Below, piece after piece: positions 47,615 to 63,234 of a DNA stretch of 64,000 nt. The translations under genes and the position numbers were made by a program. Source of the stretch: a virus; the IMG/VR virus record IMGVR_UViG_3300035698_016797, positions 117,031-181,030 of that record. One strand, written 5' to 3'. The first letter of the stretch is position 1; every line of letters starts with the position of its first letter. The notes under the pieces are model-generated. The model ran no database searches. It worked only from the letters and a program-made list of their open reading frames with translations, and was not told the origin of the DNA.

Positions 47615-48115
47615 TTACGGATATAAAAAGCTAAGACGATAACCCCAGTTTTCTGTGACTCCATCTCCAGCGTCAGACGGAGGCTGAACCGCAAGGAAAA
47701 TATAGTCTGTGTCGTCTGGGTCGGTAACCGTTGTAGTATTATCTGTAAAGTTACTGCTACCCGGCTCTGCTTCTGGAAGTGTTGCCGTACTGCGACCTGT
47801 ACGATACTCTGCCGTACCGGCCTTGTTTGCGTCTGTGAATGTTGTTGGATCTGTCCATGTTGAATCACATGCATATTTGTGAACCCAACCGGCAGATGCG
47901 GCTATATTAGTATTTCCACCAGTTGAGGCCATGTCGTTAAGCCAATATTTGAGAGTGTTGCATGTATTACCAGAAAACGTGGCAACAACACACTTACAGT
48001 CAGACCAATAACCGGCCTGTACATTCCCAAAATCTAATACAGTAATAAGGCTGCCTTTTGAAGGGCTTCCTGTACTGTCTGTAACCGGATACCACGTTAC
48101 TGAAGGTGCTGCCAT
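47615..48115 (-). CDS. Hypothetical virion-type protein (166 aa)
   Basis: SD AGGAG; beta-rich, T/S/D-rich; ends in YRLSFLYP. Confidence 0.55.
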   Translation of the reverse strand: MAAPSVTWYPVTDSTGSPSKGSLITVLDFGNVQAGYWSDCKCVVATFSGNTCNTLKYWLNDMASTGGNTNIAASAGWVHKYACDSTWTDPTTFTDANKAGTAEYRTGRSTATLPEAEPGSSNFTDNTTTVTDPDDTDYIFLAVQPPSDAGDGVTENWGYRLSFLYP

Positions 48116-48126
48116 GTTAATTTCTC

Positions 48127-48816
48127 CTATTCTGAAATCTTGAACAGTTGATCTTCTTCTTCTATTAACAACTGATCTTTTGCTATCAATGGTTTCAGGC
48201 CATCCTCGTCCAAACGAGCCGCGATAACGGCAATATTTGTCTGATTAACAACCGTTCCTTTGCCAGAAATTCTATCAGCTCTCCTTGCAGCCAAGTTTTG
48301 TCTGAAGGCTTGCTGGCGATATATACTTGAGTTGTAATCCTTTTCAATGTCAGCTCTGGGCTGACGTCTCTTCTTTAACAATAGTCTGAATTGGATCACT
48401 TTTTCAATTGCAATACTGTGCACGTCATCAAGGTCTTCTTTCATTGTCCAATCGGGATGTGATATAATCCAAGACTGTACTTCGGCTGAATATATCTTCA
48501 ATTCATCTCCGTCTAGTACCGCCTTAATAGTTGGAGAGATAGCTCCGCTTGCACCAATACATGACGCAGGAACCATAGCTTTGGTCCCATCTGGCAAATC
48601 TATCTCAATCATTCCATCCTTAACCTCTCCATCAGGAAGAAGAGAATCTTCCTTTTTGACAGGCTTTTTCTTGTCAGAATACTGAACAAGATTCTGCATT
48701 CTTTTCTGCACACCATCAGAATGCTTTTCATCAATTTTTACTTTTTTACTCTTAGTTGCTGTTGGACTCATAAATACACCTCTCTTATCATAACCATGTT
48801 CACAAAATTTAGTCAC
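48127..48816 (-). CDS. Hypothetical protein, possibly terminase small subunit (229 aa)
   Basis: Helical C-terminal half with AARRADR; position upstream of the packaging genes only. Confidence 0.35.
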   Translation of the reverse strand: MTKFCEHGYDKRGVFMSPTATKSKKVKIDEKHSDGVQKRMQNLVQYSDKKKPVKKEDSLLPDGEVKDGMIEIDLPDGTKAMVPASCIGASGAISPTIKAVLDGDELKIYSAEVQSWIISHPDWTMKEDLDDVHSIAIEKVIQFRLLLKKRRQPRADIEKDYNSSIYRQQAFRQNLAARRADRISGKGTVVNQTNIAVIAARLDEDGLKPLIAKDQLLIEEEDQLFKISE

Positions 48817-49355
48817 TAATTATCGAAAAGATTCATCCTACGAATTTTGATCCTCAACCTTTTGAGAAGCATACTTACAGATGATGGATGTCTGTACCCA
48901 ATCTTGGCAGCAATATCCCTCTGCGTCATAGAGGGATTCTCCCTAAGAATCGTAAGAACTTCTATCTCTCTGGGTTTGAGCTGACTGGCTTTGTCACCAA
49001 TCAATGCATCAACATGCGCAAGCTGTTGGCCTAAGGCTCCGTCGTTGCTAATGTACTCCTGAAAGGAAAAGGTTGAGTGCATTTCGTCGGTAAGATGATT
49101 TTTACGCGCATTTGTATACAACTTCTTATTAATGAAGTTGACTACGCATCTATATGCAAAGCTTGAAAACTTAACTCCTCGATCTTCGTCAAACCGTGGA
49201 ATTACCTTTTGCCATAAATGAATCATGGCTTCAGATTTCAGATCGCTTTTATCTTGTGCGGGGATGTTATATCCAGTAAGAATAGACCAAATCATTGGCT
49301 CTATACTACGTAACATCTCCTCCGGGTCTTTTATCTTCTTCTGCTGTTCGCTCAT
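48816..49355 (-). CDS. Phage RNA polymerase sigma70-family factor (likely start ATG 49355)
   Basis: Region 2-like FDEDRGVKFSSFAYRCVVNFI and region 4 HTH LKPREIEVL...TQRDIAAKIGYRHPSSVSMLLKRLR. Confidence 0.8.
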   Translation of the reverse strand: MSEQQKKIKDPEEMLRSIEPMIWSILTGYNIPAQDKSDLKSEAMIHLWQKVIPRFDEDRGVKFSSFAYRCVVNFINKKLYTNARKNHLTDEMHSTFSFQEYISNDGALGQQLAHVDALIGDKASQLKPREIEVLTILRENPSMTQRDIAAKIGYRHPSSVSMLLKRLRIKIRRMNLFDN

Positions 49356-49521
49356 GTGTGGGTTCTCCGTCACTTAGTGTTACTTTAAGTTCAATGACAG
49401 AAAGTGTACCGGTAGGGGTTTCTCGTGAACAAACAGCGCCATCATATTCAAAAGGAAGTCCACTTTCTTTAATTTTACTGAGGATTAGAAGGATTTGATC
49501 GTAGGACATTAGAGGTTTCAT
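49306..49521 (-). CDS. Hypothetical protein (71 aa)
   Basis: Starts directly after the SEC-C gene; overlaps the sigma gene start region. Confidence 0.4.
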   Translation of the reverse strand: MKPLMSYDQILLILSKIKESGLPFEYDGAVCSRETPTGTLSVIELKVTLSDGEPTHERTAEEDKRPGGDVT

Positions 49522-49522
49522 G

Positions 49523-49855
49523 TTATTTCACCATGCAACATTGTTTATATTTGAGACTACTGCCACAAGAACATTTGGTGTTGCGACCAATCTTTGGATT
49601 CTTTCTGCGAATTGGAATAAACTTGCCATCGCTATCTTTCTCCTGCTCCTGCCTTCTGACAAGTGCTCCACTATTCATTCTAACCCCATCTACAGATGCG
49701 GCATTTTTCAACAAACATTCGGCACAAATCTTTTTGATCGTTCTTGGGTTTAATGTACAGGTTGGCTTGATCTTTCTGTCAAGCATACAGGAAACACCAC
49801 TTTCGCTCTTAAACCTATACGTCACCTTAATTGCAGTCTTGTCTTTTTTTATCAT
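49523..49855 (-). CDS. SEC-C motif protein (110 aa)
   Basis: C-terminal KIGRNTKCSCGSSLKYKQCC. Confidence 0.8.
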   Translation of the reverse strand: MIKKDKTAIKVTYRFKSESGVSCMLDRKIKPTCTLNPRTIKKICAECLLKNAASVDGVRMNSGALVRRQEQEKDSDGKFIPIRRKNPKIGRNTKCSCGSSLKYKQCCMVK

Positions 49856-49857
49856 AA

Positions 49858-50526
49858 CTATTTCCTTCCTGATCCAATAACTTCTTTTACCAACTGTGCA
49901 ATATGTGGAGGTACTTGCCTTGAAGAGAAGTAGTCTGCCAAATGCACTATCGTCGCTACCTTACGCAATACGTCATCTTCCTTGTTTTCTGGAATGTGTT
50001 CCACATATCCAGCATCTTTACACGTCCATCTACCCATGTGTCCAGCTATTCCAGCTAGAATACATTTGTATTGATATGTTAACGGATGTTCTTTGCTACC
50101 CTTGAAGAGATCGTTGTACAGCTTCATTGCAAAATCAACGCCGTGCTTTTCGGTGTTGTTAGGAATTATACTTTGCCTTGAACCGTTAAACTTTGTTCCG
50201 TGTTTGTACCCATCGTGCAACATACATGCAGATCTTATTACGTCTTCAAAGGTTGCGTCTCCAAATCCACACAGACGTCTGTCGGACTCGGTTAATGGCA
50301 TAGCTCTAGTAAGCTCTACTCCAAGCCAGCTTGTAACCTTGATGTGTCTTACAATTCCACCATTGCCCTGATTCCATGGGGGATGATATTTTCCAGTCGT
50401 TGAACAAGCTGCTCTCCAGAAGTATTCTGGAACCTCGTTGTCAAGGACATGTATTGTAAACGTTTTAATATCGTCATTTGTAAACTGACTTAACTCCTCA
50501 TTAAAATAATGTTCTGATTTAGACAT
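49858..50526 (-). CDS. HD-domain phosphohydrolase (222 aa; true start ATG 50526)
   Basis: STTGKYHP...GGIVRH...MLHDGYK...HMG...VHLADY. Confidence 0.75.
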   Translation of the reverse strand: MSKSEHYFNEELSQFTNDDIKTFTIHVLDNEVPEYFWRAACSTTGKYHPPWNQGNGGIVRHIKVTSWLGVELTRAMPLTESDRRLCGFGDATFEDVIRSACMLHDGYKHGTKFNGSRQSIIPNNTEKHGVDFAMKLYNDLFKGSKEHPLTYQYKCILAGIAGHMGRWTCKDAGYVEHIPENKEDDVLRKVATIVHLADYFSSRQVPPHIAQLVKEVIGSGRK

Positions 50527-50914
50527 TCGTAATCCTTTCTGTTGTTCCAATCTCCCATCTTCCTCCACCATGATATTGAAAACTAACCATATTTGCTGCT
50601 GTCTCCGGTGTTGATGGTCCTGTAGTTGTTGTTGTTGTTGTTGTTGTTGTGTTTGTAGTGATGTTTGCAAATTCTCCTGCATCATAATATGTAGGATCAA
50701 GATTAGGAGTGATAGCCTCAATAGTATAATCCGCTGGATCAAGAAGAGTTGGTGGCCTAAAGCCACTTGCTGGTATAAGCCCTCCTGGAAAAGTTTGATC
50801 TTGAGCACTACTTAAAATGCGTTGCCAATACTCAGCTTGAGATTCTTCACATTCTACTGCTGGCATTTCACACTCTTCATCAGAAAACATATGTGGATCA
50901 AAAATGACAAACAT
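50519..50914 (-). CDS. Small acidic protein with poly-Thr tract (131 aa; start ATG 50914)
   Basis: SD GAAAGGG before MFVIFDPH; contains NTTTTTTTTTTGPST. Confidence 0.55.
   Translation of the reverse strand: MFVIFDPHMFSDEECEMPAVECEESQAEYWQRILSSAQDQTFPGGLIPASGFRPPTLLDPADYTIEAITPNLDPTYYDAGEFANITTNTTTTTTTTTTGPSTPETAANMVSFQYHGGGRWEIGTTERITNV
50625..50650. repeat. (GTT)8 trinucleotide microsatellite encoding poly-Thr on the minus strand
   Basis: gttgttgttgttgttgttgttgttgt read directly. Confidence 0.9.
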
Positions 50915-50915
50915 A

Positions 50916-51092
50916 TTAATCCCTTTCTGGCAACTTCGCGGTTGTTTGTTTGTATGGTCCAGCGGAAGCTTTGCAAGCTGGACATTTAACAGAATCAGAA
51001 GCTGCCTGTGCAGGTGTAACGCTAAACACTCTACCGCAAGATTTGCACTTTGCATTTGTCGTGTCGTATACCTTACCAGTGGTTTTTTGCAT
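50916..51092 (-). CDS. Zinc-ribbon protein (58 aa, below the ORF-track cutoff)
   Basis: Read manually: MQKTTGKVYDTTNAKCKSCGRVFSVTPAQAASDSVKCPACKASAGPYKQTTAKLPERD; SD AAGGA. Confidence 0.65.
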   Translation of the reverse strand: MQKTTGKVYDTTNAKCKSCGRVFSVTPAQAASDSVKCPACKASAGPYKQTTAKLPERD

Positions 51093-51103
51093 TGTAATTT
51101 TCC

Positions 51104-51346
51104 TTATAGTTCAAATTCGTCATTCAAGAAGCGTAATACCTTTTGCATCTCTTCTATTTTGACTCTTAAAATAATTGATTGATCCCTACTGGGCGTGGGC
51201 ATGGCTATATCAACCATTCCTTTGTCTTCTGGATTTTCTGTAATATCTTCTGATTTAGCCAGTGTGATATTGACATTTTCTCCAGTTGAACCTCCTGTGG
51301 CGGAGTCAATATGAATCACATGAGCTTTGGTTACTAAGCGTGCCAT
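51104..51346 (-). CDS. Hypothetical protein (80 aa)
   Basis: SD GAGGAG; tiles in the operon. Confidence 0.55.
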   Translation of the reverse strand: MARLVTKAHVIHIDSATGGSTGENVNITLAKSEDITENPEDKGMVDIAMPTPSRDQSIILRVKIEEMQKVLRFLNDEFEL

Positions 51347-51802
51347 TTATTTACTCTCCTCTGCGCTTGCGGTTTCTTGTGACAATTTTTCCATTGATTC
51401 AATTAAAACCTCGTATTCTTTTTTGATGGTTTCTAGGGCTTTTCCGAAATCTGGCCTGTCGTCATCTCCAACACCACGCTTTGCGTATGCTTGAAGCATT
51501 TTCAAATTACAGTCTGCATGATCCAAATGATGAAGGCCACTTTCGCTATCAAAATCTTCTCCCATGAACCAATATAGCATATGTCTAAGCATGGCTGCAA
51601 ACGGCCTTGTCCAACGCATTCCTTTTTCCCAGTTGCGAGCACTATATTTTACGGCTCCATATGTGAAAACCATTGCAGTTCCAATTAGAGCGTCCCACGG
51701 CATCAAATCTAACCTTGGCTTGCCATTGTCAAATTTGGCGGCAGTTTTACCTCCAATTTTATATGAGTCTCCGTCAACTTTTATTGCTTTTTCTTTTACC
51801 AT
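51347..51802 (-). CDS. dATP/dGTP diphosphohydrolase domain protein, DUF5664-like (start ATG 51802)
   Basis: KFDNGKPRLDLMP...FTYGAVKYSARNWEKG...RH...GEDFDSESGLHHLDHA. Confidence 0.85.
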   Translation of the reverse strand: MVKEKAIKVDGDSYKIGGKTAAKFDNGKPRLDLMPWDALIGTAMVFTYGAVKYSARNWEKGMRWTRPFAAMLRHMLYWFMGEDFDSESGLHHLDHADCNLKMLQAYAKRGVGDDDRPDFGKALETIKKEYEVLIESMEKLSQETASAEESK

Positions 51803-51823
51803 CGTCACTTCCTTTCTAATCAT

Positions 51824-51851
51824 ATAATAGCACCTATTTATATAAATGCAA
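51824..51851 (-). promoter_or_regulatory. Leftward sigma70-type promoter
   Basis: Minus strand TTGCAT-N16-TATTAT with TG one base upstream of the -10 box (extended -10). Confidence 0.55.
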
Positions 51852-51869
51852 CTTTTTTCTGAACAAAAT

Positions 51870-51898
51870 TTGACTTTTCTCAACATATGCAGTATACT
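51870..51898 (+). promoter_or_regulatory. Rightward sigma70-type promoter for tRNA block 1
   Basis: TTGACT (51870-51875)-N17-TATACT (51893-51898). Confidence 0.8.
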
Positions 51899-51919
51899 AT
51901 GCGTAAAGGAGATCGTCAG

Positions 51920-52000
51920 ATGAAAAACTTATATATCAACTTATCCTCACTCAGTTTGTACTGCCTGTATTTTTCGGGCAGTCGTAAGGAGGACTTGTAG
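51920..52000 (+). CDS. Leader peptide 1 (26 aa, MKNLYINLSSLSLYCLYFSGSRKEDL), putative attenuator
   Basis: SD AAAGGAG; lies between a promoter and a terminator; 12 consecutive Leu/Ser/Tyr/Cys/Phe codons. Confidence 0.8.
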   Translation: MKNLYINLSSLSLYCLYFSGSRKEDL

Positions 52001-52030
52001 GCATATAATAATGTCGATCAGAAGAAAGTC

Positions 52031-52061
52031 AAACCCCTCCTTAACTGGATGGGGTTTTTTT
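52031..52061 (+). terminator. Intrinsic terminator/attenuator 1
   Basis: AAACCCCTCC-TTAACT-GGATGGGG followed by 7 T; its 5' arm can instead pair with TAAGGAGG (51985-51992). Confidence 0.8.
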
Positions 52062-52068
52062 ATGTATT

Positions 52069-52163
52069 GGAAAGGTGGCTGAGTCTGGATTAAGGCGGTG
52101 CTCTTGAAAAGCATTGAGCGGCGGTAACGTCCTCCGTGGGTTCAAATCCCACCCTTTCCGCCA
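52069..52163 (+). tRNA. trnS: tRNA-Ser(TGA)
   Basis: Cloverleaf, loop CTTGAAA, long variable arm, G73, encoded CCA. Confidence 0.92.
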
Positions 52164-52168
52164 ACAAT

Positions 52169-52301
52169 GGATTGGTAAGTAATTGGCAGCTGTCCTGTGG
52201 GTAGTACTGAAAGCTGAAGGCTAATGGGTGATTGAAGGCCGCACCCCAGCAGAAGAACAATACAAGCCTTAGACGTTCGGGTTCGAATCCCGACCAATCC
52301 T
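52169..52301 (+). ncRNA. tRNA-like structured RNA (133 nt) with no canonical anticodon arm
   Basis: Acceptor GGATTGG/CCAATCC, D-arm AGT-AATTGGCA-GCT, T-arm TCGGG-TTCGAAT-CCCGA; about 85 nt between the D and T arms; no encoded CCA. Confidence 0.65.
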
Positions 52302-52308
52302 ACAATGA

Positions 52309-52393
52309 GGGTGTGTTGGACAGGTGGTGAGTCCAGTAGACTGTAAATCTACCGCAATAAGCTTTGGAGGTTCGATTCCTTCCATGCCCACCA
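52309..52393 (+). tRNA. trnY: tRNA-Tyr(GTA)
   Basis: Loop CTGTAAA, long variable arm, CCA. Confidence 0.92.
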
Positions 52394-52405
52394 AAAAAAA
52401 TGTTT

Positions 52406-52425
52406 AGCTCATTGAAAATTGAAAA
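52406..52425 (+). promoter_or_regulatory. boxA-like antitermination element, copy 1
   Basis: AGCTCATTGAAAATTGAAAA; 17/20 identical to 56530-56549; resembles rrn boxA TGCTCTTTAACAATT. Confidence 0.55.
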
Positions 52426-52449
52426 GTGTCTGATATAGTTAGAACAGAT

Positions 52450-52536
52450 GGCCGTGTGGCGGAATTGGCAGACGCGCTAGACTCAAAATCTGGTGTTCGC
52501 AAGGGCGTGTGGGTTCGAGTCCCACCATGGCTACCA
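52450..52536 (+). tRNA. trnL: tRNA-Leu(CAA)
   Basis: Loop CTCAAAA, long variable arm, CCA. Confidence 0.92.
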
Positions 52537-52583
52537 ATCAACGTAATAATTCTGTGATAAATAGTAAAAAGGAGGATTTTATA

Positions 52584-52820
52584 ATGTTAAAGGCCACACA
52601 TTATTCTGGCGACGGAAAAGTGATAAGTGTATATAAAAATGTATTCACATATCTTACAGGGGTTGCGAGTGAAATCACTCTTCTTATAGACAATGATAAG
52701 ACAAGAAGAATGAGAAAAAAATATGAGTCTGGTAAAGGTATGATTGTACCAGAAGTTGAGTATTCAAAATATACTTCTATAACGATTTTTGGTAATGTGG
52801 TGGTTGAAAAAGATAATTAG
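52584..52820 (+). CDS. Hypothetical protein (78 aa; start ATG 52584)
   Basis: SD AAGGAGG; the longer track ORF extends into tRNA-Leu. Confidence 0.6.
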   Translation: MLKATHYSGDGKVISVYKNVFTYLTGVASEITLLIDNDKTRRMRKKYESGKGMIVPEVEYSKYTSITIFGNVVVEKDN

Positions 52821-52827
52821 AAGAGGA

Positions 52828-52903
52828 TGAGCAATAGCCAACGTGGTCAAGGCGCTGGTCTGAAAAACCAGAGACCTCAGTTCGATTCTGAGTTGCTCAA
52901 CCA
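52828..52903 (+). tRNA. trnF: tRNA-Phe(GAA)
   Basis: Loop CTGAAAA, 76 nt, CCA. Confidence 0.88.
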
Positions 52904-52962
52904 TTTGACAATAGAAGAAATTGTACGATATTATTACTAGTGCGTATAAAGAACTAAATGAT

Positions 52963-53050
52963 GGTCGAGTGGCGGAATTGGCATACGCACTTGGTTGAGG
53001 GCCAAGGACACAGTAGTGTATTGAGAGTTCGAGTCTCTCCTCGACTACCA
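52963..53050 (+). tRNA. trnL: tRNA-Leu(GAG)
   Basis: Loop TTGAGGG, long variable arm, CCA. Confidence 0.9.
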
Positions 53051-53070
53051 AATTTGAGAATGTAAGTAAT

Positions 53071-53155
53071 GCCCCGGTGGCGGAATTGGCAGACGCGCCA
53101 GATTTAGGATCTGGTGTCGAAAGGCGTGCAGGTTCGAGACCTGTCTGGGGCACCA
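53071..53155 (+). tRNA. trnL: tRNA-Leu(TAG)
   Basis: Loop TTTAGGA, long variable arm, CCA. Confidence 0.92.
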
Positions 53156-53175
53156 ACAATAGAAAGGGACAGATT

Positions 53176-53457
53176 ATGGCTAGAGTAAAAATCAACATGC
53201 CTGGTAACGACCCTGGTGCAAGAAGCATCATCGTTAATGACACTGATCTCACTGGATGTGTAGTGAGTATGGATCTTTCGATTGATCCAACTCAACATCC
53301 AGAAGTTGGACTGAAACTATTTGCAACAGACGTAAAGTTTGAAGGAGATGCAAATATCGTTATCAATGGAATAGAAATACCACAAGAATTGTGTGAAAAA
53401 ATCGCAGATGCTTTGCGCTATGCTTCTGCAAGTGAGCAGCAGAAAGATTCAACATAA
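53176..53457 (+). CDS. Hypothetical protein (93 aa; start ATG 53176)
   Basis: SD GAAAGGG; MARVKINMPG... Confidence 0.55.
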   Translation: MARVKINMPGNDPGARSIIVNDTDLTGCVVSMDLSIDPTQHPEVGLKLFATDVKFEGDANIVINGIEIPQELCEKIADALRYASASEQQKDST

Positions 53458-53466
53458 GGAAAGTGC

Positions 53467-53557
53467 GGAGGGTTGCCAGAGCGGCCTATTGGTCCTGCTT
53501 GGAAAGCAGTGAGTCCCTCTGTGGGACACGAGAGTTCGAATCTCTCACCCTCCGCCA
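53467..53557 (+). tRNA. trnS: tRNA-Ser(GGA)
   Basis: Loop TTGGAAA, long variable arm, G73, CCA. Confidence 0.9.
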
Positions 53558-53563
53558 CTACAC

Positions 53564-53884
53564 ATGTCAACACCAACATTTGACGCCCATGGACTGAAAC
53601 ATATGGAAGTAGCTCCGAAGCTTGAAGATTTTTTTCTTAAGCACGGAGCACCAATCAGAGTTATCACTGGAAAATCTCACATGATGAGGTTGATTTTAAT
53701 AGAACTGATGGCAAATTATGACCTAGAAGGATATCATCCAAACTTCAATAATACTGGAGAGGTTGTTGTAATTGAAAGGAATCGTAATGGTAATAAAAGT
53801 ACAAAAGCTAACGGACGTCCACTTGGCACAAAGAGCTTGCGCAATGACAACTTCAGGACGAAGGTCAGGAATAGACCTAGATAA
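53564..53884 (+). CDS. Stand-alone Smr-domain-like protein
   Basis: FDAHGLKHMEVAPKLEDFF...IRVITGKS...NTGEVVV matches the Smr pattern LDLHG...EA...L..F...IIHGKG...G...V; the last ~33 codons overlap the next gene. Confidence 0.6.
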   Translation: MSTPTFDAHGLKHMEVAPKLEDFFLKHGAPIRVITGKSHMMRLILIELMANYDLEGYHPNFNNTGEVVVIERNRNGNKSTKANGRPLGTKSLRNDNFRTKVRNRPR

Positions 53885-54302
53885 ACTATACCAGTGTGAA
53901 CACTCTCCTGTTAGAACTCAAATATTTTGGATAGAGATGTTAAACATTCCAACGTTTGTTTCCGTCCACTTTGTAAGACACAAGATAGGCGTTGAACACT
54001 TCGCAACAAGTAATAGGCCAGATAGGGGAACTGGAGAAGCCGACAGAATGACGCCAATTAACCACGGTATGCTCATTAATGCACAAGCACTAATAAACAT
54101 GGCAAAGAAGAGGTTGTGTTATCATGCGTCAAAAGAAACAAGGGAAACTATGATTGCAATCCTTAAGCAAATCAAAGTCGTTGATTCAGGTCTTTCTAAA
54201 CGAATGGTTCCAGAGTGTGTATATAGAGGAAAGATTTGTCACGAATTGAAACAGTGTGATTTTATGAAGGGAGCAATAGATCACTGTACGGATAGACGTT
54301 GA
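53787..54302 (+). CDS. thyX: Short ThyX/Thy1-like flavin-dependent thymidylate synthase
   Basis: SD GAAAGGA before ATG 53787; EHSP, HFVRHK...SNRPDR, INAQALINMAKKRLC...VPEC motifs. Confidence 0.7.
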   Translation: MVIKVQKLTDVHLAQRACAMTTSGRRSGIDLDKLYQCEHSPVRTQIFWIEMLNIPTFVSVHFVRHKIGVEHFATSNRPDRGTGEADRMTPINHGMLINAQALINMAKKRLCYHASKETRETMIAILKQIKVVDSGLSKRMVPECVYRGKICHELKQCDFMKGAIDHCTDRR

Positions 54303-54310
54303 CGACTAAT

Positions 54311-54397
54311 GGCCGGATGGCGGAATTGGCAGACGCAACGGACTTAAAATCCGTTATCCAAAAGGGTGTGGGGGTTCGATTCCCCCTTCGGCCACCA
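54311..54397 (+). tRNA. trnL: tRNA-Leu(TAA)
   Basis: Loop CTTAAAA, long variable arm, CCA. Confidence 0.92.
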
Positions 54398-54432
54398 ATA
54401 ATAAATATAGAATACAGACCGTAGGAGAAAAC

Positions 54433-55545
54433 ATGAATTTATCAGAACCAAGCAATATATGTATTAAACCATGGTATGATCAAACCATAGATATGTCTGG
54501 GTGCTGGAGTTGTTGTGGAAACGTCAAAGACAGTGGAGCTATATTTTACGATGAGGATTGGAAAGGTCCATATGTTGGAGATGTTGATCACTGGAATAGT
54601 CCAGAAATGCAGAAATTTAGGAAGGATATGCTAGAAGGAGGAGCCAGCATTGCCTGCGGTATGGCAAAGTGTCCACAAAGATATCGTTCTGCATCAATAG
54701 GAGATAGAATTTTAGAGTTGAAACAAGGTTATAACATCAAAGATGAAAAGTCAAAATCTCAAATAGCAGAAGCCATAGAGAACAATAGACTTATTCTCGA
54801 TTACTCTGCTAAAAAAATTACATACATAGTTACAATGGCTTGTAATTCAAAATGTGCATATTGTTTTCAGATAAGCAAAAGAAAAGATGGTAGTCTAAAT
54901 CCTCCAGAAGGGTATGAAGATCATATTATACCAATTTTGACGAGTGCTAAAGCGGTAAGACTTGCTGGAGGAGAGGTGTTCGTACTTTCAGATAAAAAGT
55001 TGGATAAGTTTTTTGGACACAAAGATTGGGAAAATGTAGAACATGTGTGTGTTGTTACAAATGGAACACTATTGACGCCTGAAAGATATGAAAAATATGC
55101 AGCTAATGGCCCACTTAGCAACATTGAAATTAGTCTAAACACAATGAGCGCAGAAGAGATGTTGAATGAAACAGAAGATATGCTGTTCAAATGCGAAGAT
55201 AACATGAGGGGAATATATGAAAAATATCCAGACCACTGTGTTACAACGTTGAACGTTGCCATGTCTATAAATATCATAGACAGAATTGACGAAGTATTAG
55301 AGTTTGTAAAAAAGTATGGAATAAAAGAGATATTGATTCATCATATAAATGGAACAGTAATGGAATTGAGCGGTGTTGGACATCTTAATCCATACTGTAA
55401 AGAAGGCTATTCAGAAGAAGTTCACGAAAGACTTTTAAAGGTGGTTGATGTTGCGAAACAATTTACAAAAGAGAATGGAATCGGCCTAAGATATAGTACC
55501 ATTCCAATGTCCCTGGGAGAAATGAAGAAAGAGATGGCACAGTAG
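54433..55545 (+). CDS. Radical SAM protein with N-terminal SPASM-like domain (370 aa), paralog of 37196-38311
   Basis: CNSKCAYC, AGGEV, TNG, ISLNT; N-terminal CIKPW...CC...WKGPYVGD shared with the first copy. Confidence 0.8.
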   Translation: MNLSEPSNICIKPWYDQTIDMSGCWSCCGNVKDSGAIFYDEDWKGPYVGDVDHWNSPEMQKFRKDMLEGGASIACGMAKCPQRYRSASIGDRILELKQGYNIKDEKSKSQIAEAIENNRLILDYSAKKITYIVTMACNSKCAYCFQISKRKDGSLNPPEGYEDHIIPILTSAKAVRLAGGEVFVLSDKKLDKFFGHKDWENVEHVCVVTNGTLLTPERYEKYAANGPLSNIEISLNTMSAEEMLNETEDMLFKCEDNMRGIYEKYPDHCVTTLNVAMSINIIDRIDEVLEFVKKYGIKEILIHHINGTVMELSGVGHLNPYCKEGYSEEVHERLLKVVDVAKQFTKENGIGLRYSTIPMSLGEMKKEMAQ

Positions 55546-55609
55546 TCAAGTGGTAAGACGCTGGTCTGCAAAACCAGTTACGTGGGTTCGATTCCCACCT
55601 GTGTCTCCA
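55536..55609 (+). tRNA. trnC: tRNA-Cys(GCA)
   Basis: Loop CTGCAAA, U73, CCA; its first 10 nt overlap the radical SAM stop. Confidence 0.92.
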
Positions 55610-55623
55610 CAGAAAGGCTTACA

Positions 55624-56058
55624 ATGAAAATTAAGAACTTTTCAGGGCACTACGGATTCCTAAGCAATTTCTATGTTGAAAAAAATGGAAAGACGGCAGA
55701 GCATTATTTTCAAGCTTCCAAAACTCATGATAGAAAGTGGCAAGATCTCGTTAAGCTTCAGCATTCTCCAGAGGCTGCAAAAAAGTTTGGTAGATCGTTG
55801 CCTCTAAGAAAAGATTGGCAAAGTGTAAAAGTTGAGATAATGAGAATCGTTTTGGAACGTAAGTTTTCAGATCCAGAACTAAAACAAAAGCTTTTGGAAA
55901 CTGGAAATAGAGAATTAGTAGAAGGAAATACATGGCATGATAATTTCTGGGGAGATTGCAAATGTCACAAGTGCAGACATATTAAGGGTCGAAACGTATT
56001 AGGTATCTTGCTCATGAAAGTAAGGGATATGTTGAGATCTTTCGAAGAAGCAGAGTAG
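55624..56058 (+). CDS. NADAR (YbiA-like) family protein (start ATG 55624)
   Basis: FLSNFY...AEHYFQASK...AKKFGR...MRIVLERKF...LLETGNRELVEGNTWHDNFWG...GRNVLGILLMKVR. Confidence 0.9.
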   Translation: MKIKNFSGHYGFLSNFYVEKNGKTAEHYFQASKTHDRKWQDLVKLQHSPEAAKKFGRSLPLRKDWQSVKVEIMRIVLERKFSDPELKQKLLETGNRELVEGNTWHDNFWGDCKCHKCRHIKGRNVLGILLMKVRDMLRSFEEAE

Positions 56059-56150
56059 GAGAGGTGCCAGAGTGGTTTATCGGGACAGTTTGCTAAACTG
56101 TTGGATCATGAGATGTGGTTCCCAGGGTTCGAATCCCTGTCTCTCCGCCA
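56058..56150 (+). tRNA. trnS: tRNA-Ser(GCT)
   Basis: Loop TTGCTAA, long variable arm, G73, CCA. Confidence 0.9.
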
Positions 56151-56177
56151 ACAAACGTAAAAAAAGTTTCAAAAAGC

Positions 56178-56207
56178 TTGACATAGTTCTTAATACAGGT
56201 ATAGTAT
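56178..56207 (+). promoter_or_regulatory. Sigma70-type promoter for tRNA-fMet and block 2
   Basis: TTGACA (56178-56183)-N16-TATAGT, or N18-TAGTAT; A-tracts upstream. Confidence 0.75.
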
Positions 56208-56221
56208 AGGTAGATTTAGAT

Positions 56222-56300
56222 TGCGGAATGGAGAAGTCCGGCTTAACTCGCTTCGCTCATAACGAAGAGACCGTGGGTTCAAATCCCACTTCCGCTACCA
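56222..56300 (+). tRNA. trnM: tRNA-Met(CAT), initiator-like
   Basis: Loop CTCATAA; U1.U72 mismatch and A11-U24 pair as in fMet tRNAs; lacks the three G-C anticodon-stem pairs. Confidence 0.8.
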
Positions 56301-56316
56301 TTAAGGAAAACAGCAA

Positions 56317-56391
56317 ATGATTAGTTCAATTAGAAAATGGCGCAATAACGGTACAGGAAAAACGGGGGACTACTGCGCCTTGACCCCCTAG
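56317..56391 (+). CDS. Leader peptide 2 (24 aa, MISSIRKWRNNGTGKTGDYCALTP), putative attenuator
   Basis: SD AAGGA; lies ahead of a strong terminator; 13 consecutive Ile/Arg/Lys/Trp/Asn/Gly/Thr codons. Confidence 0.8.
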   Translation: MISSIRKWRNNGTGKTGDYCALTP

Positions 56392-56415
56392 TTGATCATT
56401 CATTTGATTATATAC

Positions 56416-56448
56416 AAGACGAGGCGCTTAGGTGCCTCGTCTTTTTTT
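56416..56448 (+). terminator. Intrinsic terminator/attenuator 2
   Basis: AAGACGAGGCGC-TTAG-GTGCCTCGTCTT plus T-tract; its 5' arm can instead pair with GCGCCTTG (56375-56382). Confidence 0.85.
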
Positions 56449-56450
56449 AT

Positions 56451-56524
56451 GCGACTGTAGCATAGTGGTAATGCGCTGGACTTCCACTCCAGTCAGGAGG
56501 GTTCGATTCCCTCTAGTCGCTCCA
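56451..56524 (+). tRNA. trnG: tRNA-Gly(TCC)
   Basis: Loop CTTCCAC, U73, CCA. Confidence 0.92.
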
Positions 56525-56529
56525 GAAAA

Positions 56530-56549
56530 AGCTCCTTGACAATTGAATA
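56530..56549 (+). promoter_or_regulatory. boxA-like antitermination element, copy 2
   Basis: AGCTCCTTGACAATTGAATA; GCTCCTTGACAATT matches E. coli rrn boxA GCTCTTTAACAATT at 12/14. Confidence 0.6.
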
Positions 56550-56563
56550 AGATGGTGTAGAGT

Positions 56564-56641
56564 AGGTGAGTAGCTCAATTAGGCTAGAGCAGCGGTCTCC
56601 AAAACCGCAGGTTGCAGGTTCGATTCCTGTCTCACCTGCCA
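56564..56641 (+). tRNA. trnW: tRNA-Trp(CCA)
   Basis: Loop CTCCAAA, G73, CCA. Confidence 0.92.
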
Positions 56642-56656
56642 AACAAGGGTAACAAA

Positions 56657-56908
56657 ATGAATAAAGCAGCAATATTAGCAGCATACGACGATGATCAAGC
56701 AGAAATTTTAGCAGCATATGTCAACGTAGCATTAAGAGCAGATGAAGTGATAGAGTTCATAAAAAGAAAATATGGCGTTACTAGCGAAGATGGTTTTACA
56801 TGTATGTATATACTGAGACTGTCACAGGCACTAGATAGGCTGAAGGCAACAACAGGAGGACTTAACGATGGACAAGCCGATGAAGATGTATATTCTAGTG
56901 AAGAATGA
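56657..56908 (+). CDS. Hypothetical protein (83 aa; start ATG 56657)
   Basis: SD AAGGG; MNKAAILAAY... Confidence 0.5.
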   Translation: MNKAAILAAYDDDQAEILAAYVNVALRADEVIEFIKRKYGVTSEDGFTCMYILRLSQALDRLKATTGGLNDGQADEDVYSSEE

Positions 56909-57197
56909 TGTTGACTTAGGACATGCAATGTTGGCAGTTGCACATGGTGTGGCAGCTTGTATGAGACAATACAAGGATGATGAAGATTTGAATGAATGGC
57001 TTCTCGACTCCTTTAGGAAGGTTGTTTGCAAGGTTAACCAAAAAGAGTTTGATGCCGCAAAAACCCTTCTTGAAAAAAGAGTTATCATGACAGAGTGTGC
57101 GTTAGACAATCAGGAAACTGCCATTGTCTTTTGTCCGCGCAAAGAGTGGCCAAAACCGTTTAGTTGGTATAAGCTATATAGAACACAGAAAGATTAA
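56868..57197 (+). CDS. Peptidyl-tRNA hydrolase, Pth2 family
   Basis: KMYILVKNDVDLGHAMLAVAH...W...RKVVCKV...ETAIVFCP. Confidence 0.8.
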   Translation: MDKPMKMYILVKNDVDLGHAMLAVAHGVAACMRQYKDDEDLNEWLLDSFRKVVCKVNQKEFDAAKTLLEKRVIMTECALDNQETAIVFCPRKEWPKPFSWYKLYRTQKD

Positions 57198-57200
57198 ACA

Positions 57201-57488
57201 ATGAAAAAACTAAAATTGCCAGATATTATTGAATATTTAAACGACAAAATTGACGCATTGTGTGAGAGGAAAAATGCTAGAAAACCAGCAAAGGCTGGAA
57301 AGATTTTTGGAGATTCTGTTGTTAAAGAATCTGAAAGACAAGAATTAGAACAGCAAATATCTACAATCTATTCTGTAATAGATATTTTAGATCCAAACGG
57401 TAAATACCTTGAAAAGTACACAGATATTCATCTTGGATGTCAAAATTGGCCAAATTGTGATTCTGTCGGGTGTGGAAATGGAAAATGA
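57201..57488 (+). CDS. Hypothetical protein (95 aa)
   Basis: ORF track; C-terminal GCQNWPNCD. Confidence 0.5.
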   Translation: MKKLKLPDIIEYLNDKIDALCERKNARKPAKAGKIFGDSVVKESERQELEQQISTIYSVIDILDPNGKYLEKYTDIHLGCQNWPNCDSVGCGNGK

Positions 57489-57494
57489 AAATGT

Positions 57495-57568
57495 GCGGGT
57501 GTAGCATAGTGGTAATGCACCAGCTTGCCAAGTTGGCTAGGAGAGTTCGATTCTCTCTATCCGCTCCA
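57495..57568 (+). tRNA. trnG: tRNA-Gly(GCC)
   Basis: Loop TTGCCAA, U73, CCA. Confidence 0.92.
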
Positions 57569-57582
57569 AAAGGAGAAACAAA

Positions 57583-57900
57583 ATGGTACAAACTATACCG
57601 TGTGAATGTGGTGAGACATTGATAGGACTTGATGGAATGTGTGTCGGGTGTTCAAAAGACAGACGCCCTCCGGTTTGTCCAAGCTGTCACTTTAGACATT
57701 TTGAAACGGAAAGATGTAACTTTGAAATGTTAAATGCAGAAGATACACGAACGATGATGCTGTTGGAACTTGCAGAGCATAAGCTAAATGAGGCACATGA
57801 AATAACCTCAGATGGTGAAGTTCACAAGTCGATTGATGAAGCTATGATCATAATGACGATGATCAAAGGTACTTTGTCCGACAGAATAAACGAAAGGTAG
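57583..57900 (+). CDS. Hypothetical Cys-rich protein (105 aa)
   Basis: SD AAGGAG; CECG, CVGC and CPSC motifs. Confidence 0.6.
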   Translation: MVQTIPCECGETLIGLDGMCVGCSKDRRPPVCPSCHFRHFETERCNFEMLNAEDTRTMMLLELAEHKLNEAHEITSDGEVHKSIDEAMIIMTMIKGTLSDRINER

Positions 57901-57904
57901 TGGA

Positions 57905-58135
57905 ATGACAATTGAAGATGCAATAGATCACTGTTATGAGGTTGCAGAAGAGGCTGAGAAGTTTCAATGCTCACCATGCACTAATGATCATTTGCAATTG
58001 GCAAAATGGTTGATAGAGTTAAAGAAGAGACGTGAAGAATGTATGTGCCAGCTTAGCTCAGCGGTAGAGCCGCTGTTTTGTAAACAGCAGGTCGTCGGTT
58101 CGATTCCGACAGCTGGCTCCAAACTAAGAAAGTAA
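57905..58135 (+). CDS. Hypothetical protein whose frame runs through all of tRNA-Thr
   Basis: SD AAGG; MTIEDAIDHC...LAKWLIELK; no stop before 58133. Confidence 0.45.
   Translation: MTIEDAIDHCYEVAEEAEKFQCSPCTNDHLQLAKWLIELKKRREECMCQLSSAVEPLFCKQQVVGSIPTAGSKLRK
58047..58121 (+). tRNA. trnT: tRNA-Thr(TGT)
   Basis: Loop TTTGTAA, CCA. Confidence 0.92.
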
Positions 58136-58139
58136 AAAC

Positions 58140-58559
58140 ATGGATAATGATACAACCACAAACGAAGAGTTTGAGATTTTCAAGAAAGAATGTCTGTATT
58201 GGATAAATGAGTTCTGCCTTCATGATTGGGACGTAGAATTTTGGCACGAAGATATGTCTGAGGCGAAAGCCAGAACAGACTGGACTTGTGAAGGTAAGCT
58301 TGCCAGAATTACTTTTTCAAAAGACTGGAGTCATGTACACAAGACTGATGTTGCAATAAAAGCTTCCGCATTTCACGAGGCTACTGAACTATTACTTGCA
58401 GAGCTGAGCGCAATTTCAAACTGTGTTGTTGTTGATCACAAAAGAACTGACAGGGCAGTACATAGCGTTATACACAGACTTCAGCACATGTTGATTGATA
58501 GAGAGCGTGATGAAATCCAAATTGATATTGTTCAAAGTTTAAAAACAGAAGAGGTTTAA
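58140..58559 (+). CDS. Hypothetical protein with degenerate zincin-like motif (139 aa)
   Basis: LHDWDV...ARITFSKDW...AFHEATELLL. Confidence 0.5.
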   Translation: MDNDTTTNEEFEIFKKECLYWINEFCLHDWDVEFWHEDMSEAKARTDWTCEGKLARITFSKDWSHVHKTDVAIKASAFHEATELLLAELSAISNCVVVDHKRTDRAVHSVIHRLQHMLIDRERDEIQIDIVQSLKTEEV

Positions 58560-58560
58560 T

Positions 58561-59286
58561 ATGCCTAGTGCAATGGTCCCATTTAGCAAGCTTCCAAAAC
58601 CAGAGTCTATAACGGTGGCAAAGGACAGGGGTACAGCATATGGGTACGACGTAATCCTTACAGAAGAATGTATGGAATTTTGTCATAGATACGCTACTAA
58701 GATGCACGAGGTATCAGGTTGTGTAAATATCAATCATGCCATGAGTGGAAAAAAGGGCGAATTTGTAACGTGTGCAGTCTTTATGCATTTAGCAGAAAAG
58801 CTCAAAAGTATGAAGATGAAAGTTATTCATCATGGATTCAGAAGCGAATATTCGTACGACGAAGAACATTTCAAGGATGATATGATGATGGTAATGGGGA
58901 AAAGAGAACATGTACAGTTTGAAATAAAAACATCTGCATGTAATGATCTGGAAAATAGAAGGCCGGGCGGCTTAAGCTGTTCTTTTGATTCTATTCTGAT
59001 AAAGATGGTATACATTTTTTGTCTAGCACCAAAAGAAAATCCTAACCATGTAAGAATTATAGGATGTGCAACACCAAATCATTTAAGAAGGCATTGCATT
59101 ATAAGACACAGGGGAGATATAATGAGCAATAAGGGTGGAGTCATAAAGGAAAGACGTCTGACGGATTGGTCTATCAGATGTAGAAATATGATACCTTTAA
59201 CAGAGGGAACAGTAGAAGATTTGAAATTTCGAAGATATAAGAAAATGGACATTAAATACAACGATATCGGTGGTAAAGTTAGATAG
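58561..59286 (+). CDS. Possible PD-(D/E)xK nuclease-fold protein (241 aa)
   Basis: GKKGE...DD...FEIKT pattern; SD GAGG. Confidence 0.4.
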   Translation: MPSAMVPFSKLPKPESITVAKDRGTAYGYDVILTEECMEFCHRYATKMHEVSGCVNINHAMSGKKGEFVTCAVFMHLAEKLKSMKMKVIHHGFRSEYSYDEEHFKDDMMMVMGKREHVQFEIKTSACNDLENRRPGGLSCSFDSILIKMVYIFCLAPKENPNHVRIIGCATPNHLRRHCIIRHRGDIMSNKGGVIKERRLTDWSIRCRNMIPLTEGTVEDLKFRRYKKMDIKYNDIGGKVR

Positions 59287-59292
59287 ATATGA

Positions 59293-59367
59293 TCGCCAGT
59301 AGCTCAATGGTAGAGTATCCGGCTGTTAACCGGAAGGTTGAAGGTTCGAACCCTTCTTGGCGAGCCA
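59293..59367 (+). tRNA. trnN: tRNA-Asn(GTT)
   Basis: Loop CTGTTAA, T1-A72, G73, CCA. Confidence 0.92.
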
Positions 59368-59386
59368 AATTAAGAAAGGTACAACA

Positions 59387-59686
59387 ATGTCATCAGGTCA
59401 ATATGGATTCTATGGGAAAACAGGCGTATTTAACAATGATGGATTCTTTAACGAAGGACAAAGGGTTCCTATTAAACCGTGTTCGTGCGGTGGCAATGTA
59501 CAAATATATTGTGAGTACGAAGAAATGATAGGGTGGAAAGGAACAGATTTTCAAATTGTTTGCCGCAACTGTAAGAGGCAGACTAAAATTGGAATAGATT
59601 TTGCACTGTTAATAGACAATTGGAACGACGACGATGTTTTGCCAAAAGAAAAACATCACGCATGGTCCTTACCTAATAGCCCTTGA
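59387..59686 (+). CDS. Lar-like zinc-binding protein (start ATG 59387)
   Basis: KPCSCGG...IVCRNC...LIDNWN resembles the Lar restriction-alleviation family. Confidence 0.55.
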   Translation: MSSGQYGFYGKTGVFNNDGFFNEGQRVPIKPCSCGGNVQIYCEYEEMIGWKGTDFQIVCRNCKRQTKIGIDFALLIDNWNDDDVLPKEKHHAWSLPNSP

Positions 59687-59710
59687 CAAAGTGAACACAC
59701 GGTATATATT
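59683..59710 (+). promoter_or_regulatory. Possible internal sigma70-type promoter
   Basis: TTGACA (59683-59688)-N16-TATATT (59705-59710). Confidence 0.5.
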
Positions 59711-59736
59711 GTAAGAAGTTAAAAGAAAGGAATACA

Positions 59737-60024
59737 ATGATAGCAGATATTATAAACGCATCCTTTGAATTACTTGCAGGATTGTTCATAGCTAACAATT
59801 GCAGGTGTATTGTGAGGGATAAGGAAATCAAAGGTGTAAGTGCAATTTCAATATTGTTCTTTACGTTCTGGGGCTACTGGAACCTCTACTACTATCCAAG
59901 CTTAGGACAGATATGGAGTTTCATAGGTGGTATCGTTGTGGTAAGCGCAAATACGGCCTGGATAGGATTAATTGCATACTATAGGATTAAAACAAGGAGT
60001 TTGGAAAATGGACAAACCAGCTAG
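59737..60024 (+). CDS. Small 3-TM membrane protein, PQ-loop/SemiSWEET-like (95 aa)
   Basis: Three hydrophobic segments; RDKEIKGVS...WGYWNLYYY. Confidence 0.5.
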   Translation: MIADIINASFELLAGLFIANNCRCIVRDKEIKGVSAISILFFTFWGYWNLYYYPSLGQIWSFIGGIVVVSANTAWIGLIAYYRIKTRSLENGQTS

Positions 60025-60544
60025 AGACGATGTTAACTGGATAGAAACCACAAACGGAAGATTGGCATATCCACTCAATCCAAAACCTGAAGACATGTTC
60101 ATTGACGATATTGCACACTCTTTGTCGTTGCAATGCAGGTTTACGGGTCACTGTTCTAAGTTCTACAGCGTAGCAGAGCACTGTGTGCTTGGTTCGAGAC
60201 TCTGCGACAGTCCAAGGTGGATGTTACTACACGACGCATCGGAGGCATATCTTACAGACATAGCAAGGCCAGTAAAGAGACTGTTACCAAAAGTTAAGGA
60301 AATTGAAAACGATTTACTGTGGTGTGTGGCCGCAAGGTTTAACCTTATATGGCCAATGCCGGAATGTGTCAAAATAACAGATGATAGAATGCTCATTACT
60401 GAAAGAAATCAAATTATGCCAAAAAGTCAACACGTTTGGGGAATAGATAAGATTGGTTTGGAACCGTACGATATTAAGATTGAATATTGGACTCCAGAGG
60501 TTGCAGAGGCAGAATTCTTCAAAAGATTTTACGAACTGAGTTAG
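60008..60544 (+). CDS. HD-family 5'-deoxynucleotidase, YfbR/YfdR-like (start ATG 60008)
   Basis: IDDIAHSLSLQCRFTGH...YSVAEHC...LLHDASEAYLTDI..PVK...KITDDRML. Confidence 0.8.
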   Translation: MDKPARDDVNWIETTNGRLAYPLNPKPEDMFIDDIAHSLSLQCRFTGHCSKFYSVAEHCVLGSRLCDSPRWMLLHDASEAYLTDIARPVKRLLPKVKEIENDLLWCVAARFNLIWPMPECVKITDDRMLITERNQIMPKSQHVWGIDKIGLEPYDIKIEYWTPEVAEAEFFKRFYELS

Positions 60545-60554
60545 GAGTAAAACA

Positions 60555-60776
60555 ATGCTTACTGTTGAATGTAAAATTAACGGTTATCCGATTACAACTA
60601 CGCTTATACGCAATGTTACAAAGGAGCAGAATTGGGACAAAGCAATACACACGTATGAAGTTAAACACTCAAGCAATAACGGTAAGCTTATAGAGTTCTT
60701 GATAGAACACATTAGAAACCAGGGGTCAGAAAAGCTTGTAGAAATAGTAATGAAGGAAATTTACGGGCGCTTGTAG
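60555..60776 (+). CDS. Hypothetical protein (73 aa)
   Basis: SD AGGAG; its stop TAG is U8-A9-G10 of tRNA-Lys. Confidence 0.6.
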   Translation: MLTVECKINGYPITTTLIRNVTKEQNWDKAIHTYEVKHSSNNGKLIEFLIEHIRNQGSEKLVEIVMKEIYGRL

Positions 60777-60845
60777 CTCAGCCAGGTTTAGAGCATCGGA
60801 CTTTTAATCCGAGGGTCCAGGGTTCGAATCCCTGCGGGCGCACCA
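60767..60845 (+). tRNA. trnK: tRNA-Lys(TTT)
   Basis: Loop CTTTTAA, CCA. Confidence 0.92.
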
Positions 60846-60861
60846 AAATCAGGAGATAACA

Positions 60862-61065
60862 ATGGATAGTAAAGATGGAACACTTTGTCCCAGGTGGGAA
60901 GATCCTGTCCAAAGAAATATCATTCCAGGACAGGATATGCAAAGAGCGGGACATGTTGACATCATTTTCGTTGGCGAAGAAGAGGAGACTGCTCATTCGT
61001 CATATCTCGAAGAAGATTTTTCAAACGACGAATTAATAGGAGCGAGTGGGCGATTAGCTCAATAG
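60862..61065 (+). CDS. Hypothetical acidic protein (67 aa)
   Basis: SD AGGAG; its stop lies inside the tRNA-Arg(ACG) D-loop. Confidence 0.5.
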   Translation: MDSKDGTLCPRWEDPVQRNIIPGQDMQRAGHVDIIFVGEEEETAHSSYLEEDFSNDELIGASGRLAQ

Positions 61066-61124
61066 AATAGAGCACCTGGCTACGAACCAGGAGGTTGGGG
61101 GTTTGAATCCCTCATCGCTCGCCA
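61048..61124 (+). tRNA. trnR: tRNA-Arg(ACG)
   Basis: Loop CTACGAA, A20, CCA; variant T-loop TTTGAAT. Confidence 0.88.
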
Positions 61125-61131
61125 CATTTTT

Positions 61132-63230: not shown

Positions 63231-63234
63231 TTAA

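Follow-up and report, generated by a model that had tools for sequence, protein, structure and literature searches.

Among the leader-peptide attenuators of the enterobacteria, the ilvGMEDA and ilvBN leaders (Ile, Leu and Val) and the leader of the thr operon (Thr and Ile) are multivalent. Leader-peptide control of a component of the translation apparatus is exemplified in Escherichia coli by the pheST attenuator with its pheM leader. The locus described here, termed leader 1, lies ahead of a tRNA array in a phage genome and shares with the ilv and thr leaders a short leader in which several amino acids are represented, a set of helices (1:2, 2:3 and 3:4, predicted for the phage) that exclude one another, and an intrinsic terminator placed before the first gene. 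The mechanism predicted for the phage leader would also yield read-through when any one of the sampled codons is decoded slowly, as in those systems. By contrast, leader 1 would control tRNA genes rather than biosynthetic enzymes, and it samples five amino acids and ten anticodons with mostly one codon each, whereas the enterobacterial leaders use clustered repeats. It also belongs to a group of three phage-encoded cassettes among which the genetic code is divided, and it has no sequence homology to those leaders. The pheST system is similar in having a translation-apparatus target and in responding to the decoding of cognate codons, but its target is an aminoacyl-tRNA synthetase, a single amino acid is sensed, and the system resides on a host chromosome.

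The four-region logic, in which region 2 is masked by a ribosome at the leader stop codon, is common to leader 1 and the trp and his leaders (trpL and hisL), although the latter sense a single amino acid via tandem codons and have biosynthetic targets. T-box riboswitches of Firmicutes and Actinobacteria likewise convert tRNA status into a choice between terminator and antiterminator ahead of translation-related genes. However, a T-box binds uncharged tRNA through a specifier codon and the T-box motif and does so without a ribosome, whereas the sensor proposed for the phage is the translating ribosome itself. Rfam searches of 48000-64000 (E ≤ 1) and of 51860-52070 (E ≤ 10) matched no T-box. The curated Rfam leader families (Leu, His, Thr, Trp and Phe) gave no significant match either, the best being Phe_leader at 19.9 bits against a gathering threshold of 55 (E = 0.33). 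Full-text literature searches returned no published account of leader-peptide or trp-operon-style control of tRNA genes, and in the papers on phage tRNA function in which these terms were looked up, leaders, attenuation, terminators and promoters are never mentioned. What would be new is the use by a phage of textbook attenuation on a class of genes not previously linked to it, through several codon-sampling sensors that act as a coordinated set.

The genome is a single contig of 181,030 bp (41.9% G+C), and the window, i.e. the whole 64-kb stretch of DNA analyzed here, is its final part; coordinates refer to the window unless the genome is specified. The sequence is present in salt-lake metagenome runs, and the DNA of leader 1 was found identical and without variants in contigs from four other salt-lake runs, which excludes an assembly artefact. 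ARAGORN analysis of the whole genome returned 32 credible tRNAs, arranged in three blocks, together with one intron-split tRNA-Arg(tct). Leader 1 occupies a gap (51870-52068) between a divergent minus-strand gene for a dATP/dGTP pyrophosphohydrolase-like protein and the first tRNA of a long plus-strand array. When the array was compared with INPHARED by megablast and blastn, only single tRNAs were matched. The best tblastn matches to the pyrophosphohydrolase-like gene and the large terminase were 28-57% identical and lay in unrelated phages, and IMG/VR scans with both proteins gave no match. In a search of 5.8 billion proteins, the radical SAM protein of the array matched only itself and the closest non-self matches to the pyrophosphohydrolase-like protein were partial (52-60%). 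These searches thus point to no sequenced relative of the phage. Since relatives that would allow covariation analysis of the leader helices were lacking, recurrence of the arrangement was instead checked in unrelated public phages (see below).

The elements of leader 1 are listed here in order.
51870-51898, plus strand: promoter-like site P1, TTGACT, a 17-nt spacer and TATACT; sigma70-like, with 10 of 12 consensus matches
51906-51911, plus strand: Shine-Dalgarno site AAGGAG, read directly, 8 nt 5' of the ATG
51920-52000, plus strand: leader ORF 1, 26 codons and a TAG stop (51998-52000), from reading and translation
51941-51976, plus strand: control run, codons 8-19, comprising Leu, Ser, Tyr, Cys and Phe codons
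51944-51951, plus strand: region 1, the 5' strand of the protector (1:2) helix in MFE folds, inside the control run
51960-51982, plus strand: inner 8-bp hairpin stacked in the 1:2 domain in predicted folds, 51960-51967 pairing with 51975-51982
51985-51996, plus strand: region 2, the shared strand, with region 1 or region 3 as predicted partner
52026-52043, plus strand: region 3, the 3' strand of the antiterminator (52026-52029 and 52036-52043) in predicted folds
52031-52061, plus strand: intrinsic terminator (3:4), a 10-bp bulged stem with a 6-nt loop and seven T (dG -14.2)
52069-56150, plus strand: tRNA block 1, ten tRNAs identified by ARAGORN, with interspersed plus-strand ORFs

Genome-wide, only 12 strong sites have this form, P1 being one of them, and the transcript start predicted for it is at ∼51905. 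The promoters of leaders 1 and 3 (51870-51884, and near 6720 on the minus strand of the genome) have in common the extended motif TTGAC(T/A)TTTCTCAA, which may be the signature of a class of promoters specific to the phage. The 3' end of region 2 lies 2-6 nt 5' of the stop codon. The terminator stem (52031-52057) is followed by the T run and ends 8 nt ahead of the start of tRNA-Ser(tga) at 52069; it was overlooked by a simple consensus scan because the stem is bulged. No promoter-like site was detected between the terminator (52061) and tRNA-Ser (52069). The tRNAs of block 1 follow in the order Ser-tga, Tyr-gta, Leu-caa, Phe-gaa, Leu-gag, Leu-tag, Ser-gga, Leu-taa, Cys-gca and Ser-gct, and protein genes (ThyX-like, radical SAM and others) would share the transcription unit. 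Thus, all elements of a trp-type attenuator are present at the sequence level, in the correct order and with the correct spacing, and direct reading and translation reproduced the coordinates stated in the original prediction. Between tRNA-Ser(tga) and tRNA-Tyr lies a further tRNA-like element of ∼133 nt (52169-52301, plus strand). Its acceptor stem has 7 bp and its T arm is canonical, but the body has no cloverleaf fold. ARAGORN made no call on it, intron mode included, and Rfam scored the T arm only (12 bits); this element could be a tRNA that carries an unusual insertion or has decayed, or else a decoy resembling a tRNA.

The codon content of the control run matches the tRNAs that follow. 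Codons 8-19 were read exactly as first listed and comprise four Leu, four Ser, two Tyr, one Cys and one Phe codon, all twelve of them different. The earlier claim that the run covers every downstream tRNA and contains no other amino acid also stood, all ten tRNAs being touched through Watson-Crick or standard wobble pairing. A stop-free run of 12 codons restricted to these five amino acids, with all five present, occurs at two loci in the six frames of the 181-kb genome, compared with a mean of 0.1 in twenty first-order Markov random genomes. For this amino acid set and the codon usage of the phage, the probability of touching all ten tRNAs is 0.014 and that of twelve distinct codons is 0.003.

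Alternative RNA helices can be drawn for the leader transcript. The predicted 1:2 domain pairs 51944-51951 with 51987-51993 around the hairpin 51960-51982 (dG -19.4), and the predicted 2:3 pairing joins 51985-51992 to 52036-52043 (8 bp) and 51993-51996 to 52026-52029 (dG -13.8). Within the terminator, region 3 covers 5 nt of the 5' arm along with 3 nt of the loop. All helices named in the original prediction were recovered, including that of 51944-51948 with 51989-51993, and the proposed invasion of the terminator by the antiterminator was seen in the predicted 2:3 fold, which takes 5 nt of the 5' arm. These predicted energies fall in the range of classical attenuators. The antiterminator octamer occurs twice in the 64-kb window, the two occurrences being exactly its two strands, and the 2:3 duplex of leader 1 is stronger than those of 98% of shuffled ORFs. 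In the comparison of pairing between the 3' end of the ORF and the 5' arm of the terminator with that of shuffled sequences, P values of ∼0.017, 0.001-0.015 and 0.03-0.12 were obtained for leader 1 and for the two further leaders described below (leaders 2 and 3), respectively.

The dependence of these helices on ribosome position was modelled by folding the transcript, cut just 5' of the 3' arm of the terminator, with all nucleotides up to the 3' edge of the ribosome blocked. Here, the ribosome edge was placed at +11 to +16 nt from the A site. For leaders 1, 2 and 3, the last A-site codon compatible with antiterminator formation was 17-19, 15-17 and 18-20, respectively. In the three modelled leaders, masking of region 1 began at codon 4-6, and in leader 1 it was masked with the A site at codons 5-14. 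No antiterminator formed in leader 1 with the A site at codons 20-27, and in all three modelled leaders a ribosome at the stop codon abolished it. The sensing windows predicted on geometric grounds alone thus coincide with the control runs (codons 8-19, 5-17 and 7-21 in leaders 1, 2 and 3, respectively). Folding constrained by ribosome footprints, which had been proposed as a check on the locus, thus gave the 2:3 helix of leader 1 only with the A site at or before codon 17-19. Both expectations about the ribosome were borne out in these blocked-footprint folds: at the stop codon it masks the antiterminator strand and, when stalled in the control run, it leaves that strand free. Folds in which pairing across the ribosome was permitted were discarded on account of a spurious pairing of the Shine-Dalgarno site with the terminator. 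Equilibrium folds of the complete leader with a footprint always kept the terminator, and the model therefore requires kinetic, co-transcriptional folding, as for trp. In classical attenuators, equilibrium folds likewise keep the terminator and the decision is kinetic.

The most probable explanation, to which we assign a probability of about 0.78, is that leader 1 is a multivalent ribosome-mediated attenuator that raises transcription of the phage tRNA genes when its codons are decoded slowly. Transcription would start at P1, and a ribosome would load on the 26-codon leader. If codons 8-19 are decoded fast, the ribosome would reach the stop codon and cover region 2 (51985-51996), the terminator at 52031-52061 would form, and RNA polymerase would halt 8 nt short of tRNA-Ser. 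If scarcity of its charged tRNA slows decoding at any of the Leu, Ser, Tyr, Cys or Phe codons, the stalled ribosome would mask region 1 and the inner hairpin. Region 2 would then be free to pair with region 3, half of the 5' arm of the terminator would be sequestered, and polymerase would read into the ten tRNA genes. In the model, these ten tRNAs are probably made only when ribosomes slow on block 1 codons. New phage tRNAs would relieve the stall and switch the system off, so that product feedback would make it a tRNA homeostat. Without translation, the 1:2 helix would keep region 2 occupied and termination would prevail. Slow decoding in the infected cell may reflect loss of host tRNA, a codon-usage mismatch or peak demand.

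Two further cassettes of this type are present in the same genome.
56317-56449, plus strand: leader 2 cassette, from reading and folds, with its ORF at 56317-56391 and, at 56416-56443, a 12-bp terminator followed by a T run
Genome 6637-6545, minus strand: leader 3 ORF, with a promoter-like site upstream and a strong terminator downstream

Block 2, which follows leader 2 (window 56451-63710 and genome 262-426), encodes tRNAs for Gly, Trp, Gly, Thr, Asn, Lys, Arg, Arg and Ile; beyond the contig end it continues with Lys and Arg. Codons 5-17 of leader 2 are 13 consecutive codons for Ile, Arg, Lys, Trp, Asn, Gly and Thr only, the sole such locus in the genome, and its AGA codon is matched by the intron-split tRNA-Arg(tct). 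The predicted energies of its 1:2, 2:3 and 3:4 helices are -9.5, -19.2 and -21.7, respectively. Block 3 consists of 11 minus-strand tRNAs (genome 6476-2334) for Ala, Pro, Gln, Ile, Glu, His, Val and Asp. In leader 3, 13 of the 15 codons from 7 to 21 specify block 3 amino acids, with all eight present (four such loci genome-wide), and the corresponding helix energies are predicted at -23.3, -25.3 and -19.8. As in leader 1, the ORF-side strand of the antiterminator is formed by the last few codons in leaders 2 and 3. The three leader peptides have no common pattern of length, charge or motif. With 2, 1 and 4 loci for the three run types among ∼362,000 strand positions, and one of each no more than ∼150 nt 5' of the right block, simple arithmetic gives a chance probability of ∼1e-9. 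Joint placement of leaders and blocks by chance is thus very unlikely, even after a heavy penalty for criteria chosen post hoc.

At the level of anticodons, coverage is 10/10 for leader 1 (P = 0.014), 8/11 for leader 2 (P = 0.30) and 10/11 for leader 3 (P = 0.028). Taken together, the codons of the three leaders suggest sampling at the isoacceptor level. The earlier proposal of isoacceptor-level sensing is accordingly supported only moderately, the coverage of leader 2 being no better than chance. Each tRNA is sampled by one or two codons, and at this depth the response to a single hungry codon may be weak.

Several features of the blocks are recorded here in their own right. The amino acids are split among the three blocks almost without overlap and roughly by first codon letter: block 1 holds T-first codons together with Leu and Ser, block 2 A-first codons together with Gly, Trp and Arg, and block 3 C- and G-first codons. 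Ile is the exception, with Ile-tat in block 2, Ile-gat in block 3 and the codon ATT used by both leaders. Upstream of the leader 2 ORF lies a promoter-like site, P2, at 56178, and then a tRNA-Met(cat) (56178-56300, plus strand, between P2 and leader 2), which is predicted to be transcribed ahead of the attenuator and outside its control. This position fits with Met not being sensed by the leader, since the leader needs Met to start. In tRNA-Arg(tct) (61943-62624, plus strand), a 606-nt insert interrupts the anticodon between positions 34 and 35; within the insert lies an ORF for an HNH endonuclease (61997-62551). The exons fold into a clean cloverleaf, and no Rfam group I intron match was obtained at E ≤ 1.

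An independent check was made on public phage genomes. For each tRNA, a pipeline sought a terminator within 45 nt upstream and then a short ORF ending ahead of that terminator. This procedure recovered all three leaders of the phage studied here. Applied to the tRNA regions of eight public phage genomes, it returned five leader/block pairs in three unrelated uncultured huge phages.
LR756511.1, L002:18166-18282: Ser/Leu/Tyr-rich ORF with a -30 kcal terminator, then four Ser tRNAs, Leu and Tyr
LR756501.1, L003:7356-7451: Ser/Lys/His/Phe/Trp-rich ORF, then Trp, Arg, His, His, Phe, Lys, Ser and Lys tRNAs
LR745208.1: nine-residue His/Cys/Tyr leader, then Tyr, Cys and His tRNAs
LR745208.1: Ala/Pro-rich leader, then Pro and Ala tRNAs
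LR745208.1: Leu-rich leader with four different Leu codons, then five Leu isoacceptors

Whole peptides, with no chosen windows, were scored against the amino acid set of every block. The true pairing of leaders and blocks came out on top, with a diagonal sum of 49.8 (permutation P = 6e-5) and six of eight rows best on the diagonal. The pipeline returned no candidates in Xanthomonas phage XacN1, Burkholderia phage BcepSaruman, Mycobacterium phage Phabba or Bacillus phage PK-3; these four phages bear tRNAs, and the pipeline therefore makes no matches by default. In the Caulobacter phage CcrRogue (JX100814.1, L005:13273-13503), tRNAs for Pro, Pro, Thr, Lys, Lys, Leu, Leu, Leu, His and Ala lie downstream of the annotated gene gp083 (45 codons) and of a terminator of -19.5 kcal. 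Here, 33 of the 45 residues belong to the downstream tRNA set, nine Ser residues fall outside it, and an overlapping frame is also of low complexity; gp083 is a possible but ambiguous example in a cultured phage. In LR756511.1, a TTGACA lies between the leader terminator and the first tRNA-Ser (L002:18300-18380) and may belong to a second promoter downstream of the attenuator. In summary, the original reading of leader 1 as a trp-type attenuator is supported by the order of its elements, by the two further cassettes and by the five found in other phages.

Other readings of the locus have to be weighed against this evidence. The attenuator could report translation in general, that is, the availability or loading of ribosomes, with its codon content incidental or otherwise used. 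The geometry of the 1:2, 2:3 and 3:4 helices would react whenever the ribosome slows, only one or two codons sample each tRNA, and the isoacceptor coverage of leader 2 is at the level of chance (P = 0.30), all of which suit such a sensor. It would leave without explanation both the block-specific amino acids of three leaders here and five elsewhere and the twelve different codons of leader 1 (P = 0.003), and is considered unlikely. The same mechanism might instead have amino acid starvation as its natural signal, sensed through uncharged tRNA, with the array and its protein genes forming a starvation regulon. A stalled ribosome cannot distinguish a missing tRNA from an uncharged one, and starvation would trigger the switch too; the presence of the ThyX-like, radical SAM and other protein genes in the same transcription unit is likewise compatible with a regulon. 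However, a shortage of amino acids is not relieved by more tRNA, and the codon set follows the downstream tRNA genes, at least partly at the anticodon level, rather than any biosynthetic pathway. We regard starvation as a decidedly unlikely natural signal.

Two readings dispense with attenuation altogether. The ORF might be a small gene in its own right, bounded by its own promoter and terminator and coding for a functional product such as a membrane or toxin-like peptide; the downstream tRNAs would then be transcribed from other promoters. It does have its own promoter-like site, Shine-Dalgarno site and terminator, its peptide is fairly hydrophobic, and promoter-like sites occur further downstream. 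Yet the three leader peptides lack any shared pattern of length, charge or motif, the gap before tRNA-Ser (52061-52069) offers no promoter-like site, and the 8-bp complement between the end of the ORF and the terminator arm, unique in 64 kb, would be left with no role, so that this reading is highly improbable. Finally, a spurious ORF might by coincidence lie beside an insulating terminator, short ORFs being common and the criteria for the codon runs having been set after the data were seen. The genome-wide counts with their random-genome controls, the threefold replication with block-specific content and matching geometry, and the recurrence in unrelated phages all argue against coincidence, which is the least credible of the explanations considered.

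The multivalent attenuator is thus the reading preferred here, and two considerations bear on how far its control would extend. Strong sigma70-like sites lie inside the blocks at 52412-52439, 52905-52934 and 56536-56563, directly 5' of Leu-caa, Leu-gag and Trp, respectively. If active, these sites may allow later tRNAs to bypass the attenuator, leaving only the first ones dependent on it; against such bypass counts the observation that the codon set of each leader matches its whole block. The model also presupposes tight coupling of transcription and translation in the host, which cannot be assumed.

The purpose of phage tRNA genes has been debated for decades. Among the reasons proposed are codon compensation, replacement of a decaying host tRNA pool and escape from tRNA-cleaving defences (PMC10264068, PMC11555353, PMC12409363), and control of these genes is hardly discussed in the literature. 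More tentatively, the three cassettes might constitute an inducible counter-defence, in which decoy leaders detect loss of host tRNA to anticodon nucleases or other tRNA-targeting immunity and turn on only the matching block of replacement tRNAs, which would be switched off again as decoding recovers. Under this doubtful but possible extension, the amino acid-exclusive blocks would enable block-wise sensing, and the arrangement would be widespread in large phages. If the multivalent attenuator proposed here is correct, textbook attenuation would extend to a new class of target genes, the sorting of tRNA arrays by amino acid would be explained, and compact, portable sensors of individual tRNA pools would become available for synthetic biology. 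The phage would measure the supply of tRNA and top it up on demand, and the question of why phages carry tRNA genes would become testable, because the condition that induces a block would reveal the selective pressure behind it.
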